Shown here piece by piece: positions 1 to 3,428 of a stretch of DNA of 3,437 bases (positions within the stretch are counted from its first letter, which is position 1; the number at the start of each line of letters is the position of its first letter). The stretch is from Escherichia coli (GTDB taxonomy: Bacteria > Pseudomonadota > Gammaproteobacteria > Enterobacterales > Enterobacteriaceae). Location of the stretch: assembly GCF_003334815.1 (NCBI RefSeq), contig NZ_QOWO01000082.1; one strand, 5' to 3'. Made by a program: the position numbers and the translations under genes. The notes beneath the pieces were generated by a model that saw only the letters and a program-made list of their open reading frames with translations, was not told where the DNA came from and did no database searches.

Positions 1-73
1 CACATCCTGTCCCGTTTTTCAGGCCATTATAGCCTGTTATTTTTGTGCATCATAGTCTTATGCAGACGGCAGA

Positions 74-92
74 GGCAGGGCGCAGCCCTGCC
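74..92. other. Short GC-rich hairpin (8-bp stem GGCAGGGC / GCCCTGCC, 3-nt loop) upstream of the first gene
   Basis: Perfect inverted repeat read directly from the sequence. No adjacent U-tract on either strand, so it is not a canonical intrinsic terminator; role unknown. Confidence 0.3.
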
Positions 93-105
93 AGGAGTCA
101 GTTTT

Positions 106-117
106 TGATGATAAAAT
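106..117 (+). promoter_or_regulatory. Putative sigma70 extended -10 element (TGATGATAAAAT; TG-n-TAAAAT) for the 113-aa gene
   Basis: TG at 109-110, one nt, then hexamer TAAAAT at 112-117 (5/6 match to TATAAT). It lies ~34 nt upstream of ATG 151, followed by GGAGA (136-140). The same 12-mer recurs upstream of the HTH gene at 1953-1964. No convincing -35. Confidence 0.35.
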
Positions 118-144
118 CAGACTTCAACATGAAACGGAGAGAAA

Positions 145-486
145 GTGCCAATGGCTTCTAAAAAATTTTACTCAGATGATGACATCCAGCTGGCAAAAGC
201 TGCCTTATCGGAATTGCCGGACCTCACCGCTCAACGGAAAACATTGCGTGATTTTCTTGATGCCATTCGTGATGACATCATTGTCCTGGTAAGGACAAAG
301 GGTTATACACTGGCAGATGTTCGTGACACGCTTAAAAATGCAGGGTATGAAGTAGGAGAGAAGGCACTTCGTGACATTATTCGGGAAGCAGAATCGAAAA
401 AACCATCCCGCCGTTCTTCCTCTAAAACAGCACCTAAAAAGACAGATTCAGGCAGGAAAGATGGCATCGATATGAACAACAATTGA
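145..486 (+). CDS. Hypothetical small protein (112-113 aa) with Lys/Arg/Ser/Thr-rich C-terminal tail; possibly DNA-binding, function not recognised
   Basis: Open frame 145..486 ending at TGA 484-486. The GTG at 145 is only ~4 nt from GGAGA (136-140), so ATG 151 (spacing ~10 nt) is the more likely start. The tail KKPSRRSSSKTAPKKTDSGRK resembles tails of small nucleic-acid-binding proteins. No family confidently recognised. Confidence 0.6.
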   Translation: MPMASKKFYSDDDIQLAKAALSELPDLTAQRKTLRDFLDAIRDDIIVLVRTKGYTLADVRDTLKNAGYEVGEKALRDIIREAESKKPSRRSSSKTAPKKTDSGRKDGIDMNNN

Positions 487-503
487 TGTGACAATGTCAC
501 ATC
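485..503. promoter_or_regulatory. Perfect 19-bp palindrome GATGTGACA-A-TGTCACATC overlapping the stop codon of the 113-aa gene
   Basis: 9+1+9 inverted repeat verified base by base (485 pairs with 503 through 493 with 495). Typical of a dimeric DNA-binding-protein site or an RNA hairpin at the end of the mRNA. Confidence 0.4.
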
Positions 504-512
504 GTGTTCTGA

Positions 513-526
513 GATTATGATGATTA
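513..526. repeat. GATTATGATGATTA motif, related to promoter-region motifs at 106-117 and 1948-1964
   Basis: 12 of its bases (GATTATGATGAT) are identical to 1948-1959. Contains TATGAT on + and CATAAT-like on -. Sits between the stop of the first gene and the terminator. Confidence 0.3.
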
Positions 527-529
527 CAG

Positions 530-570
530 AAAAAAAAGCCCCGGCATAAATACCAGGGCTTTTCTGTTTA
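530..570. terminator. Bidirectional rho-independent terminator between the convergent 113-aa and 283-aa genes
   Basis: A-run (530-537), stem GCCCcGG (538-544) paired with CCaGGGC (553-559) with one internal mismatch, 8-nt loop, then TTTTCTGTTT (560-569). On the - strand the stem is followed by eight U. It lies exactly between two convergent stop codons. Confidence 0.6.
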
Positions 571-571
571 A

Positions 572-1423
572 TCAGACTCGTGGCGGCAATGCACCAGGAT
601 AATACCGTGCAATAACATCATTCAGTTTTTCAACAAGGTCAGAACGCTTAAAGACAATGTGTACGGTCCCTTTCTGGTAGCCACGTACCGTAAAATATTC
701 CCCTTCTAACAGCTTACCGACATTGTCGCCGTTCCCGAGAAACTCACCATACTGCGCCCCGATGCTGCTCCGGAAGTCAGGAACGTTGCGCCCCTCCAGC
801 AGATAAAACGGACGTACCAGGTCATCCAGTGCCTCCCTTCCGCTGCAGTCCAGCGTCACACGCCCGTTACTCCAGCGGTACAGCAGGTTTTCAATAATGA
901 TTTTCTTGCCCAGACGGCAGGGATTGTTGGTTCTGTAATCCCATGACAGTTTCCTGTAGACATCAATCAGTCCTTGTTCAAATGTCTGCATCTTACTGGC
1001 ATTCAGATGGCGAAAAGTTGCCAGTACATTGTCCAGGGTGATTTCAGGACAGGTGTCGCTCATCAGCTGGCTGTTCCACTCATCACGCTGGCATGAACTC
1101 ATGAAGGTGTACATGCCCGTATCTGTCATCAGGCGGTCCCAGATTTTCCGGTCGGCAAGACGGGTGATATTCCTTTTCGCTTCTTCCGGCTTATCCATGC
1201 GACGAACGGAATCAGTCACGCAGTCTTCAAACCCGTAAAGAAAAATATCACCTGACGCATCGAGCAGAATCTTGCGCGCTGTCGCCAGGCATTCCATCGC
1301 CTGCATGAATAGTGCAATACCTTCGTTACGCTGCGCGATGATGCGGTCGATAGCCACAGACGGAATAACATCTGTCGTGCCGGCAGTATTCAGGTCAGCA
1401 GTGGGTAAAGTCTGATTCATCAC
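572..1423 (-). CDS. Conserved hypothetical protein, 283 aa, function unknown
   Basis: Long uninterrupted frame (852 nt) on the - strand with GAGGAG (complement of 1428-1433) upstream. ATG at 1420..1418 gives ~8 nt spacing and is an equally plausible start to GTG at 1423..1421. Ends at the shared terminator. No nucleotidyltransferase, methyltransferase or nuclease signature recognised by eye. Confidence 0.75.
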   Translation of the reverse strand: MMNQTLPTADLNTAGTTDVIPSVAIDRIIAQRNEGIALFMQAMECLATARKILLDASGDIFLYGFEDCVTDSVRRMDKPEEAKRNITRLADRKIWDRLMTDTGMYTFMSSCQRDEWNSQLMSDTCPEITLDNVLATFRHLNASKMQTFEQGLIDVYRKLSWDYRTNNPCRLGKKIIIENLLYRWSNGRVTLDCSGREALDDLVRPFYLLEGRNVPDFRSSIGAQYGEFLGNGDNVGKLLEGEYFTVRGYQKGTVHIVFKRSDLVEKLNDVIARYYPGALPPRV

Positions 1424-1440
1424 ATTGTCTCCTCATCGTC

Positions 1441-1890
1441 ACGACTGCCGGGTCAGCCAGGTCATTTCCCGGAGGAGCGAAGCTCCTTCTGCCGTCCGGG
1501 TCTTAGGGTATTTCCCCGCAGTGGACCTTTCCGACGGGGGACGCTCACCACGTCACGGGGCAGTTGTCCGGGGGCAGACGCAAAAGTTTTTGACGCCTGC
1601 GGCAAAAAGTTTTGTGGCTGGTACATCTCTCCCCTGGACGACTGAAACGGGATGTGGTCGTGTATGTACCCCCGGAAAGTCCGTCTGCGGAGAACAGGCC
1701 GCAGTGCGGCGGCAGACAGGCAGAGACAGCTGCGCCATCAGGCGCAGTGGCCTTACACACCGTCAGGTGTGCAGGGAGCGCCGCATCCGGCGCGACTGGA
1801 GAAAACCGACGGCACAACAACGGCATGCGGTGGTCACTGGTACACCACTCCCGCACAGGTGAAAACAGAGAAAACAGCACGACATCCATA
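1441..1890. other. GC-rich, apparently non-coding spacer containing a series of short perfect GC-stem hairpins; candidate structured RNA or DNA element
   Basis: Hand counts give roughly 55-70% GC per 60-nt line versus ~50% in flanking genes. All three + frames and two - frames are open simultaneously (stop-codon depletion from GC richness, not coding). Hairpins: 1471-1489 (loop GAA), 1685-1704, 1730-1747 (7 bp, loop ATCA), 1756-1771 (6 bp, loop GTCA), 1778-1793 (6 bp, loop CATC). Confidence 0.4.
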
Positions 1891-1900
1891 ATCAAAAAAA

Positions 1901-1915
1901 GTGAAATTTCTTCAC
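1901..1915. promoter_or_regulatory. Operator-like palindrome GTGAA-N5-TTCAC (copy 1), upstream of the HTH gene promoter
   Basis: GTGAAatttcTTCAC followed by TTTTTCA. A second copy with the same half-sites and the same 3' flank is at 1968-1982. Confidence 0.4.
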
Positions 1916-1950
1916 TTTTTCACACTTATTTATCGCGCTGATTTGGTGAT

Positions 1951-1964
1951 TATGATGATAAAAT
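1951..1964 (+). promoter_or_regulatory. Putative -10 region of the HTH gene promoter (TATGAT 1951-1956 and/or TG-n-TAAAAT 1956-1964)
   Basis: AT-rich sequence with two overlapping -10-like hexamers ~35-45 nt upstream of ATG 2000. The 12-mer TGATGATAAAAT is identical to 106-117 upstream of the first gene, at almost the same distance from the start codon. Confidence 0.4.
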
Positions 1965-1967
1965 AAA

Positions 1968-1982
1968 GTGAAGTTTTTTCAC
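1968..1982. promoter_or_regulatory. Operator-like palindrome GTGAA-N5-TTCAC (copy 2), overlapping the predicted transcription start of the HTH gene
   Basis: GTGAAgttttTTCAC followed by TTTTTCA. The two copies are 67 bp apart centre to centre and bracket the -10 region, a classic autoregulation layout. Confidence 0.4.
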
Positions 1983-1999
1983 TTTTTCAAAGGTGTTTT

Positions 2000-2251
2000 A
2001 TGACCGGCTGGGAACTGCGAATCTGGCGAAAAAGCATGCTCTGGTCACGCGAAAAAGCGGCCAGAGAATTTGGCGTGACGCAGAGAACATGGCACGCCTG
2101 GGAAAATGCGGAACAGGTGGACGTCACCGTCTGGAGGACCACCCAGGCTCTTTCAGTCCGTGACCTGCTGCCTCACATGCAGGGGATGCGCAAGGCAGAT
2201 ATCATCAGGCGTCTGGAAAATGAACTGGGGGAAACGGCAGGGAATGTGTGA
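2000..2251 (+). CDS. XRE-family helix-turn-helix DNA-binding protein (83 aa), YiaG/HigA-antitoxin-like
   Basis: ATG 2000 preceded by AGGTG (1991-1995); stop TGA 2249-2251. The N-terminal segment GWELRIWRKSMLWSREKAAREFGVTQRTWHAWENAE matches the XRE-type HTH pattern (LS..ElA..lGVs..Tv..WE) seen in HigA/YiaG-like regulators. Confidence 0.75.
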   Translation: MTGWELRIWRKSMLWSREKAAREFGVTQRTWHAWENAEQVDVTVWRTTQALSVRDLLPHMQGMRKADIIRRLENELGETAGNV

Positions 2252-2262
2252 GCGTGATTCAC

Positions 2263-2283
2263 AGCCTGGCAGAATGCCAGGCT
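2263..2283. other. Hairpin (8-bp stem AGCCTGGC / GCCAGGCT, 5-nt loop) between the convergent HTH gene and the orphan small ORF
   Basis: Perfect inverted repeat overlapping the stop codon (TAG, 2284..2282) of the - strand small ORF. No U-tract, so it may be a transcript-stabilising stem or weak terminator. Confidence 0.3.
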
Positions 2284-2488
2284 ACTGCTCATCAGGAAAC
2301 AGCTTTTTCAGTTCTTCACCGGAAAGTCCCGTGACCTCCTGAATCCGTTCCGGCGGCCAGCCTATATCCCGCAGCCGGCAGGCTATTTCCCGCGCCACTT
2401 CAAGAGCCCCTTGTTTAAAACCTTGTTTAAAACCTTCTTTAAAACCCTCGTCGAAACCTTTCTGTATAAGACGTTCTGCAATCGTCAT
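2282..2488 (-). CDS. Orphan small protein (68 aa) paralogous to the C-terminal tail of Rpn nucleases (RpnS-like), with tetrapeptide repeats GFDE-GFKE-GFKQ-GFKQ
   Basis: Its first residues MTIAERL are identical to the internal segment MTIAERL of the upstream Rpn protein. The remainder follows the same pattern (KG...ALEvAreIA...g..pEqIqe.TGLS.EELKK). Nucleotide similarity around the ATG: 2470-2488 vs 2681-2699 is 17/19 identical. The SD is weak (GGAG ~13 nt upstream) and an intrinsic terminator lies just upstream, so expression is uncertain. Confidence 0.55.
   Translation of the reverse strand: MTIAERLIQKGFDEGFKEGFKQGFKQGALEVAREIACRLRDIGWPPERIQEVTGLSGEELKKLFPDEQ
2411..2458. repeat. In-frame 12-bp tandem repeat, 4 units (TTGTTTAAAACC x2, TTCTTTAAAACC, CTCGTCGAAACC), encoding the GFK(Q/E)/GFDE tetrapeptide repeats
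   Basis: Two identical adjacent 12-mers, a third with one mismatch and a fourth diverged, all in codon register on the - strand. A substrate for slipped-strand copy-number change without frameshift. Confidence 0.85.
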
Positions 2489-2549: not shown

Positions 2550-2699
2550 TCAGTGAATGACTTTTTTCAGTTCAGCTTCGGAAAGTCCGGTGGCCTGCTT
2601 AATCTGCTCAGGTGTCATCCCCATTTTCTGAAGCTGACGCGCAATGGCAAGGGCTTTTTCAAGCGCACCTTTCTGCTCAAGACGTTCTGCGATTGTCAT
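2550..2699 (-). CDS. Putative intragenic small protein (49 aa, RpnS-like) translated from an internal in-frame ATG of the Rpn gene
   Basis: Internal ATG at 2699..2697 in the rpn frame, preceded by GAGGAT (complement of 2706-2711) with 7-nt spacing. Product would be MTIAERLEQKGALEKALAIARQLQKMGMTPEQIKQATGLSEAELKKVIH. Consistent with reported intragenic antitoxins of Rpn nucleases (from memory). Confidence 0.45.
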   Translation of the reverse strand: MTIAERLEQKGALEKALAIARQLQKMGMTPEQIKQATGLSEAELKKVIH

Positions 2700-3428
2700 C
2701 AGTTTATCCTCATGCTGCGGCAGGCGCTCGGCCAGCGCCCGCATAAATTCCGGTGATACAGAGTCCCCTGCGTTAACGATGTAATGAATCAGAACACGCA
2801 CCTGCTCGTCTGAAATTTCCACCATGACCTGCGGGAGTTTGTCCAGCAGCTCCATCATGTCACGATGGCGGATATGCTTCATCAGCAGCGTCAGTGCGGC
2901 CATCCGGCGATGGTTCATGATTTCATTGTCATCAACGACAGTGATATCAACCAGCGGAAACGGCTTTGTGTATATTTTAGCCGCAAGTGACGGATTCTCA
3001 AAACAGTCCAGCCAGTTCATGCTGTACGGATACGGGCTGCGCTCACCATGATAGAACAGCACCGGAATCACCAGTGGCAACGTTTTGTGCTGCTCCAGAT
3101 GTCTCTGCATCGCCGCCACACTGTAACGTAACATGCGGAAAGGCATGTACAGATTTTCGGTGCTCTGGTGCTCGATGAGCGTATAAACATAGCCATCTTC
3201 ACCCCCGGTGGTTTTCACGCTCCAGAGGATATCGCTGGCGTACTGATGCAGGTCCGGCTCAACAAAGGTGGCGGGTTCCAGCTTCAGCGTGGACAGGTCG
3301 CACAACTGCCGGTACTCCGCCGGAAGATGCAGTTCCAGAAAATCTCTGGCGACGTCGGGATTCGCCAGGAACGACCGGAACGCGGCATCATGCGGCGTGG
3401 GCGTTGTGGTGTTTTTCTTCTTACTCAC
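2550..3428 (-). CDS. Rpn family recombination-promoting nuclease / YhgA-like putative transposase (PD-(D/E)xK nuclease), 292 aa
   Basis: N-terminus TPHDAAFRSFLANPDVARDFLELHLP and the core DILWSVKT...YVYTLIEHQS match the YhgA/Rpn family (Pfam Transposase_31-like) as I recall it. The C-terminal tail ...AERLEQKG...TGLSEAELKK is the typical Rpn tail. GTG start at 3428..3426 with GGAGG (complement of 3433-3437) 4 nt upstream. Gene is complete, but its promoter lies outside the window. Confidence 0.9.
   Translation of the reverse strand: MSKKKNTTTPTPHDAAFRSFLANPDVARDFLELHLPAEYRQLCDLSTLKLEPATFVEPDLHQYASDILWSVKTTGGEDGYVYTLIEHQSTENLYMPFRMLRYSVAAMQRHLEQHKTLPLVIPVLFYHGERSPYPYSMNWLDCFENPSLAAKIYTKPFPLVDITVVDDNEIMNHRRMAALTLLMKHIRHRDMMELLDKLPQVMVEISDEQVRVLIHYIVNAGDSVSPEFMRALAERLPQHEDKLMTIAERLEQKGALEKALAIARQLQKMGMTPEQIKQATGLSEAELKKVIH
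2706..2711 (-). promoter_or_regulatory. Internal Shine-Dalgarno (GAGGAT) inside the Rpn coding sequence, serving the internal ATG at 2699
   Basis: - strand reads GAGGATAAACTG-ATG; AGGA lies 7-8 nt upstream of the ATG, which is near-optimal spacing. Confidence 0.4.

Follow-up and report, generated by a model that had tools for sequence, protein, structure and literature searches.

The 3,437-nt stretch analyzed here (the window) belongs to an IncI1/I-gamma/K conjugative plasmid and covers the part of its leading region nearest oriT. Along it lie the nick region of oriT, the genes yggA and ygeA, a DUF4942 gene, Rpn genes, and a single-stranded DNA (ssDNA) promoter of the ssi/Frpo type (Table 1); nikA ends 84 nt to the left of the window. 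The nick block is kept in seven plasmids; its exact nick position is a putative one, placed after the RP4/R64-type ATCCTG nick regions. The pESBL oriT coordinates map to window positions up to ~14 (PMC4288162). The + strand is probably the transferred strand, so that the leading region runs rightwards from the nick region.

Table 1. Features of the window, in order of position
Feature	Position	Strand	Basis or remark
oriT nick region (CACATCCTG/TCCCG)	1..14	+	nikA end; conservation; pESBL oriT coordinates
Perfect 8-bp inverted repeat GGCAGGGC-gca-GCCCTGCC	73..91	.	candidate operator or hairpin
-35-like hexamer CTGCCA of the yggA promoter	88..93	+	promoter scan; 18-nt spacer to -10
Extended -10 TGATAAAAT of the predicted yggA promoter	109..117	+	core of copy 1 (106-117); promoter scan, alignment
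yggA ('mobC', Hp23)	151..486	+	111-aa basic protein; pCTX-M3 Orf35 homologue
GATTATGATGAT, third copy	513..524	+	between yggA stop codon and terminator
Bidirectional intrinsic terminator	534..563	.	inverted repeat; weak terminator-type Rfam match
ssi/Frpo-type class 1 ssDNA promoter element	1468..1799	-	upstream of DUF4942 gene
Distal palindromic operator AGTGAAatttcTTCACT (AGTGAA-N5-TTCACT)	1900..1916	.	candidate YgeA site
Extended -10 TGATAAAAT of the predicted ygeA promoter	1956..1964	+	core of copy 2 (1953-1964); no good -35
Proximal palindromic operator AGTGAAgttttTTCACT (AGTGAA-N5-TTCACT)	1967..1983	.	begins 2 nt past -10; covers predicted start
ygeA (Hp21)	2000..2251	+	83-aa XRE-family HTH protein, presumed autorepressor

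For YggA, no Pfam domain, NCBIfam family, or PDB relative was found by sequence. Its homologue Orf35 represses nikAB-tra transcription on pCTX-M3, with nikA, nikB, and traH down 23–80-fold (PMC6112013), and Tn-seq of pESBL showed yggA itself to be neutral, or dispensable, in transfer (PMC4288162). The arrangement resembles that of the RP4 oriT, with its divergent traJ/traK promoters, and of pCTX-M3 Orf35: a gene for a small basic protein reads away from oriT, in the orientation opposite to the relaxase operon. Unlike those systems, YggA has no known DNA-binding motif, and no similarity to TraK was detected in the comparisons made here. The HTH domain of YgeA matches Pfam PF13560 HTH_31 (E = 1e-4), and its N-terminus resembles Aca2 (7ezy; E = 8e-4) over residues 1–38 only. 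YgeA homologues are widespread on enterobacterial plasmids, and the HTH family is present in more than 3700 plasmid records.

The ssi element occurs in three copies of ~330 nt with 80–82% identity, all in the leading region, which precede the DUF4942 gene, a gene beside ardA, and ssb. The + strand DNA of the element folds with -112.7 kcal/mol (z = -7.0). The class 1 ssDNA promoters have been described for F and ColIb-P9/pESBL, and ssi1–3 are reported to be active in pESBL (PMC12672017). Like them, the stretch at 1468–1799 would form an extended hairpin in the strand that is transferred, ahead of a leading-region gene. It is, however, distinct from the motif analyzed below and merely adjoins the ygeA promoter, and it cannot be used by yggA and ygeA, which lie on the opposite strand. 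Both genes are oriented opposite to the leading genes driven by ssDNA promoters and should therefore be expressible from double-stranded DNA only. A 1.2-kb insertion, considered from two-piece matches that looked like an indel junction, was rejected, as these matches are the ssi repeat beyond the window. An Rfam E-value scan of the whole window gave no match above gathering scores, only terminator-like noise. The terminator at 534–563 separates the convergent yggA and DUF4942 genes, and its stem is kept in a lineage with 83% identity (L003).

Two short sequences recur in the window. TGATGATAAAAT is found at 106–117 and 1953–1964, ending 33 nt ahead of ATG 151 and 35 nt ahead of ATG 2000, and GATTATGATGAT at 513–524 and 1948–1959. 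All four copies are exact, confirming the coordinates and spacings of the first-pass annotation, and neither sequence has an additional copy in the window at ≤1 mismatch. With its flanks, the TGATGATAAAAT pair is identical at 14 of 15 positions (103–117 versus 1950–1964). The window has five direct repeats that are exact, maximal, and 12 nt or longer, against 0.36 expected from 1000 dinucleotide shuffles. Homology accounts for three of these five: 1911/1978 are the two operators, 2409/2421 is a tandem repeat within coding sequence, and 2468/2679 belongs to the paralogous C-termini of Rpn proteins. This leaves the TGATGATAAAAT and GATTATGATGAT pairs, for which the shuffles give P(≥2) = 0.049. 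A 12-mer common to two shuffled 80-nt upstream regions has p ~1e-4, and the pair preceding ATG 151 and ATG 2000 is therefore not random. Given the 9-mer TGATAAAAT at both sites, the three extra matching flanking bases represent a small excess (p ~0.04). A duplicated promoter module was rejected because homology stops abruptly on either side of the 15-mer.

The shared 12-mer very likely combines an extended -10 element common to two independent sigma-70 promoters with three neighboring bases that match by chance. Functional behavior is confined to the nine bases at its 3' end, TGATAAAAT, which read as an extended -10 box. At both sites the hexamer TAAAAT (112–117 and 1959–1964) agrees with TATAAT at five of six positions, including A at position 2 and T at position 6, and a TG lies one base 5' of it (109–110 and 1956–1957). 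Both sites thus resemble the E. coli sigma-70 extended -10 element (TGnTATAAT) in having TG at -15/-14, a weak or absent -35, and a leader of ~25–30 nt before the ribosome-binding site (RBS) and ATG, and no notable difference was seen at either IncI1 site. Across the six close I-complex sequences compared, TGATAAAAT does not vary at either promoter, unlike the bases 5' of it; TGGTGATAAAAT is carried by the yggA site of L019 and the ygeA site of L018. Across orthologous promoters the 5' TGA and GATTA bases are variable, and the -10 part alone is kept. The proposal that TG-n-TAAAAT is a -10 module therefore stands: the nonamer does not change among close relatives, the leader up to the RBS and start codon is of normal length, and diverged plasmids have a -10 hexamer in the corresponding place. 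Two observations sit less easily with two separate promoters, namely the weak -35 regions at both and a 14/15 identity somewhat above what a -10 requires (p ~0.01–0.04). From the sequences, their positional conservation, the covariation of operators, and the lack of further copies, we infer promoter activity, start sites, and YgeA binding; no start site for either promoter was found in the literature searched.

Copy 1 would provide the -10 of yggA within the nikA–oriT–yggA intergenic region, with a predicted start near 123–125. Its weak -35-like hexamer lies in the right arm of the 8-bp inverted repeat at 73–91, and the arrangement of CTGCCA, 18 nt, and -10 is kept in three lineages, Pectobacterium and E. 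cloacae among them. A -10 hexamer (TAAAAT, TATGAT, TATACT, or TATAAT) aligns before yggA in 7/7 diverged plasmids, in which MobC/YggA identity falls to ~40%, and TG-extended forms occur in Pectobacterium and E. cloacae (TGgTATGAT, TGtTATGAT). The inverted repeat itself shows compensatory variants, GGCAGGAC/GTCCTGCC in L018 and GGCAGTGC/GCACTGCC in Pectobacterium and E. cloacae.

Copy 2 would serve as the -10 of ygeA, bracketed by the two AGTGAA-N5-TTCACT palindromes, with a predicted start near 1970–1972. This promoter has no usable -35 and should therefore depend on the TG extension. Among the ten ygeA lineages compared (YgeA identity down to 47%), nine have a -10 hexamer (TAAAAT, TAGAAT, TAATAT, or TATAAT) directly 5' of the palindrome; the exception is Edwardsiella, with no clear hexamer abutting the operator. 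The proximal operator is kept in 10/10 lineages, and its half-sites covary from GTGAA/TTCAC to GTGCA/TGCAC outside the I-complex. The distal operator, found in the I-complex, Salmonella-83%, Pectobacterium, Edwardsiella, and Salmonella L017, has its center ~62 nt ahead of the predicted start and 67 bp from the center of the proximal one. Both palindromes are perfect, and AGTGAA-N5-TTCACT is a clear candidate operator for the plasmid HTH family of YgeA.

Judging from these sequences, a YgeA dimer most likely binds both palindromes and represses its own promoter, the proximal palindrome lying over the predicted start. Aca2 of phage ZF40 is an autorepressor acting through the inverted repeats IR1 and IR2 of its own promoter (PMC6765145). 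As with Aca2 and MqsA-type HTH proteins, a small HTH protein is encoded behind a promoter that contains two similar inverted repeats, and one of these covers the core promoter or start. The ygeA system differs from Aca2 in its operator (GTGAA-N5-TTCAC versus TTCG-N6/8-CGAA), in having no anti-defence gene upstream in the same operon, and in protein length (83 versus 125 aa).

The first-pass annotation had gone further and suggested that the shared motif co-regulates yggA and ygeA. In its strongest form, one plasmid or host factor would bind TT-TGATGATAAAAT at both promoters, an idea encouraged by the 14/15 identity at near-equal distances from two start codons, by the ~1e-4 unconditional chance of a shared 12-mer, and by the likely regulatory nature of both YggA and YgeA. 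The three bases by which the 12-mer exceeds the 9-mer, however, vary between close relatives, and beyond the -10 box the motif is not kept as a unit in Salmonella-83%, Pectobacterium, Erwinia, or any other diverged lineage. Nor does TGATGATAAAAT have dyad symmetry or internal repeat structure. Each promoter has instead its own conserved palindrome, two copies of AGTGAA-N5-TTCACT at ygeA and GGCAGGGC-N3-GCCCTGCC at yggA, and the YgeA candidate site is absent from the yggA region within 3 mismatches. A search of the replicon for more copies upstream of genes, the lack of which the annotation had itself named as counting against co-regulation, returned none in 98 kb: on both strands of the 98,012 bp, TGATGATAAAAT occurs only at its two known exact sites, its sole 1-mismatch match is a TGA-ATG junction at pilV, and the 9-mer TGATAAAAT has no other copy. 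Known host sites fit no better. A Fur box (GATAATGATAATCATTATC) was rejected, since by our own count 1948–1966 matches 11/19 positions, in the left half only and with no dyad, against a criterion of at least about 13/19 with dyad symmetry; the IHF core was likewise rejected as a poor match by our count. We regard a common operator as very improbable. The 12-mer is not a shared regulatory switch.

At the other extreme, neither copy would be a promoter element, and the matches would reflect low-complexity, AT-rich (GAT)n-like sequence. The slippage-prone repeat ATGATGAT is indeed common to all three copies, P(≥2 such repeats) is only 0.049, and the copy at 513–524 is evidently non-functional. 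Pure coincidence does not account, however, for a -10 hexamer whose position is kept in 7 and in 9–10 lineages across otherwise unalignable spacers, nor for an invariant TGATAAAAT among variable neighboring bases in close relatives, and yggA and ygeA each require a promoter in a short intergenic region. We consider this reading extremely improbable.

Coincidence does apply to the third copy, which lies 9 nt upstream of the terminator hairpin and for which a very short transcript or a binding site had been envisaged (at 513–526). It is not kept in L003, where it reads TATTGTTTTGAT, and its partner half is variable, GATTAT at 1948–1953 becoming AATTGT in the pESBL-type plasmids L021 and L019. 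On its sequence, this copy most likely matches by chance and has no independent function. Of the earlier interpretation, the -10 module is thus retained, and co-regulation and a function for the third copy are not.

With two independent promoters as the preferred explanation, the motif itself has little importance: both happen on the same good extended -10 sequence. The by-product is a set of predicted promoter and operator maps for two uncharacterised regulator-type genes. These genes have oriT on one side and, on the other, the anti-defence genes of the leading region in IncI1 resistance plasmids, which are very common (~2000 records in PLSDB).

The core of the motif can also be read on the opposite strand, where ATGATA becomes TATCAT, a potential -10 for leftward promoters back-to-back with the rightward ones. 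Positions 114–109 would then face nikA/oriT, and 1960–1955 the ssi element and DUF4942 gene. The scan does list a - strand site at 1982–1955 (GTGAAA-16-TATCAT, 9/12 matches) with its -35 within the proximal operator, TATCAT is retained in the Salmonella-83% lineage, and nikA transcription is under the control of the YggA homologue Orf35 (PMC6112013). The yggA copy, however, has no leftward -35 or TG extension, and no such site is listed by the scan. A-to-G variants in L018 and L019 give TATCAC, losing the key final T, and a leftward transcript from 1950 must traverse the 330-nt ssi hairpin. Moreover, AT-rich spacers readily yield such matches (5 scan sites versus 2.9 expected). Divergent promoters at the core are therefore very improbable.

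A more speculative and rather unlikely reading makes YgeA a switch, similar to Aca2, that controls the beginning of the plasmid leading region. Its extended -10 promoter would come into use when the incoming strand is converted to duplex DNA, and the YgeA produced would occupy the two operators bracketing back-to-back -10s (TAAAAT rightwards, TATCAT leftwards). Synthesis of YgeA would then cease, as would any conventional leftward transcription into the ssi/DUF4942 unit. The leading region would thus be expressed in the single-stranded phase only, and the 12-mer would still be only a -10 box.

The exact repeats reported in the first-pass annotation were recovered in the window: TGATGATAAAAT occurs at 106–117 and 1953–1964, and GATTATGATGAT at 513–524 and 1948–1959, with no further copy of either elsewhere in the window at up to one mismatch. 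The TGATGATAAAAT copies end 33 nt before the start codon of yggA (ATG 151) and 35 nt before that of ygeA (ATG 2000), and with their flanks they match at 14 of 15 positions. Five direct repeats in the window are exact over 12 nt or more, compared with 0.36 expected from 1000 dinucleotide shuffles. Homology accounts for three of these (an operator pair, a tandem coding repeat, and Rpn paralogues), leaving the two considered here; two or more arise in shuffles with P = 0.049. A 12-mer common to two shuffled 80-nt upstream regions has p ~1e-4 and, given the 9-mer TGATAAAAT in both regions, the three extra matching bases have p ~0.04. For the pair before the two start codons, pure coincidence is very unlikely.

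The extended −10 element TG-A-TAAAAT is present in both TGATGATAAAAT copies, the one at yggA being flagged by a promoter scan. For yggA, the nikA–yggA spacer was aligned across seven plasmids, with YggA identity down to ~40% (the I-complex of close IncI1/I-gamma/K-type plasmids, a Salmonella lineage with 83% YgeA identity, Pectobacterium, E. cloacae, Erwinia, Yersinia, and Serratia). Near yggA, these spacers share one aligned feature apart from the oriT block, a −10 hexamer reading TAAAAT, TATGAT, TATACT, or TATAAT; it carries the TG extension in four of the seven, and the CTGCCA–18 nt–(−10) spacing is fixed in three lineages. At ygeA, where ten lineages were compared (YgeA identity down to 47%), a −10 hexamer (TAAAAT, TAGAAT, TAATAT, or TATAAT) lies immediately 5′ of a conserved palindrome in nine.

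Among six close I-complex sequences, TGATAAAAT is invariant at both promoters and the bases 5′ of it are variable, indicating selection on the −10 box, not the 12-mer. Several plasmids illustrate this variation: TGGTGATAAAAT replaces TGATGATAAAAT at the yggA copy of L019 and the ygeA copy of L018, pESBL-type plasmids carry AATTGT in place of GATTAT, and the Salmonella lineage has a 1-nt deletion (TTTTT-ATGATAAAAT). The motif could also be read leftwards as TATCAT promoters, but the A-to-G change in L019 and L018 destroys this − strand reading, which we consider unlikely. The same change occurred independently in the two plasmids (at the equivalents of window positions 108 and 1955, respectively), a recurrence that may be coincidence. 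The earlier reading of a −10 module is supported, with an extended −10 in both copies and a hexamer position kept across lineages: two unrelated predicted promoters use the motif as an ordinary sigma-70 extended −10 box. What is new here amounts to unmapped examples of familiar classes.

The first-pass annotation had further proposed co-regulation of yggA and ygeA through this module, and had named a lack of motif enrichment upstream of genes in the full replicon as a refutation. Our search of the 98-kb replicon found no additional 12-mer or 9-mer copy, the outcome so named as counting against a replicon-wide motif. Co-regulation is unsupported, as each promoter has its own site: a palindrome pair at ygeA versus an inverted repeat at yggA, where a search for a ygeA-type palindrome found none within 3 mismatches. 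A common operator at both promoters is therefore very improbable.

Feature coordinates in the window
Feature	Position	Strand	Remark
oriT nick region CACATCCTGTCCCG	1–14		conserved; pESBL oriT coordinates from PMC4288162
8-bp perfect inverted repeat GGCAGGGC-gca-GCCCTGCC	73–91		over −35 of yggA promoter
yggA (Hp23)	151–486	+	annotated ‘MobC’
DUF4942 gene (Hp22)	572–1420	−	
ssi/Frpo class 1-type repeat	1468–1799		~330 nt; one of three dispersed copies
Distal palindrome AGTGAAatttcTTCACT	1900–1916		perfect
Proximal palindrome AGTGAAgttttTTCACT	1967–1983		perfect
ygeA (Hp21)	2000–2251	+	XRE HTH protein
Small Rpn C-terminal ORF	2282–2488		downstream of ygeA
Rpn nuclease gene	2550–3428		follows the small ORF

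The two palindromes bracket the ygeA −10, the proximal one starting 2 nt past it and covering the predicted start. The proximal palindrome is kept in all ten lineages and the distal one in five. The half-sites of the proximal palindrome change together (GTGAA/TTCAC in the I-complex, GTGCA/TGCAC elsewhere), the signature of a candidate dimeric protein site. YgeA has an HTH_31 domain, and its N-terminus resembles Aca2 (7ezy, E = 8e-4), an autorepressor acting via a pair of inverted repeats within the promoter of its own gene (PMC6765145), although the Aca2 operator, TTCG-N6/8-CGAA, differs in sequence from the ygeA palindromes. Most likely, YgeA represses its own promoter, and this candidate operator is the most useful output of the analysis. 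The palindrome centres are 67 bp apart in the I-complex (window 1900–1983) and an estimated ~21 bp closer in Pectobacterium (L005 3870–3990). As ~21 bp is two helical turns, the sites would stay on the same helix face, an arrangement that would be compatible with cooperative binding or looping. A third perfect match, AGTGAAtcaacTTCACT, lies outside the window at L001/L006 3392–3408, between trbC and nikB, where a microcin/immunity gene cluster is AT-rich; an exact palindrome of 12 specified bases is unexpected in 98 kb, but this copy is coding and without the A/T flanks of true operators.

The yggA repeat is ~65 nt from the oriT nick region, towards the leading region. Its stems differ yet remain perfectly complementary in three lineages (GGCAGGAC/GTCCTGCC in E. 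fergusonii, GGCAGTGC/GCACTGCC in Pectobacterium and E. cloacae), the same pair being G.C, A.T, or T.A. This pattern is consistent with selection for a hairpin in the transferred strand, or with a dimeric operator that YggA may bind. Orf35 of pCTX-M3, a YggA homologue, represses nikA, nikB, and traH 23–80-fold (PMC6112013).

The copy at 513–524, previously suggested to drive a short transcript or act as a binding site, directly precedes the terminator at 534–563 and reads TATTGTTTTGAT in the 83% lineage; not being kept there, it has no supported role. We read it as a chance match, helped by its slippage-prone ATGATGAT core. A perfect 9-bp palindrome, GATGTGACA-a-TGTCACATC, at 485–503 takes in the final two bases of the yggA stop codon and is upstream of the real terminator; that lineage keeps it only in part.

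The window starts 84 nt from nikA and shares 99.9% identity with conjugative plasmids of IncI1/I-gamma/K type, matching ~2000 PLSDB records, ColIb-P9 and pESBL of E. coli O104:H4 among them. The − strand carries the leading-region genes. The + strand is probably the transferred one, so that yggA and ygeA would be transcribable only from double-stranded DNA. Along with the DUF4942 gene, each is transfer-neutral in pESBL Tn-seq (PMC4288162). As single-stranded DNA, the + strand of the ssi/Frpo-type repeat forms a long hairpin (−112.7 kcal/mol, z = −7); other leading-region copies lie at L006 15367–15695 and 21714–22042. It corresponds to the class 1 single-stranded promoters reported for ColIb-P9 and pESBL (PMC12672017). 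The window copy lies before the DUF4942 gene, with which the leading-region genes begin after oriT.

The 68-aa ORF downstream of ygeA stands free of the neighbouring Rpn nuclease but is paralogous to its C-terminal tail. Within the ORF, a 12-nt tandem repeat (2397–2469) encodes (GFKQ/E)n. Two terminator-like hairpins, one on each side of the ORF, together make up a 39-nt inverted repeat (2259–2297 / 2503–2541).
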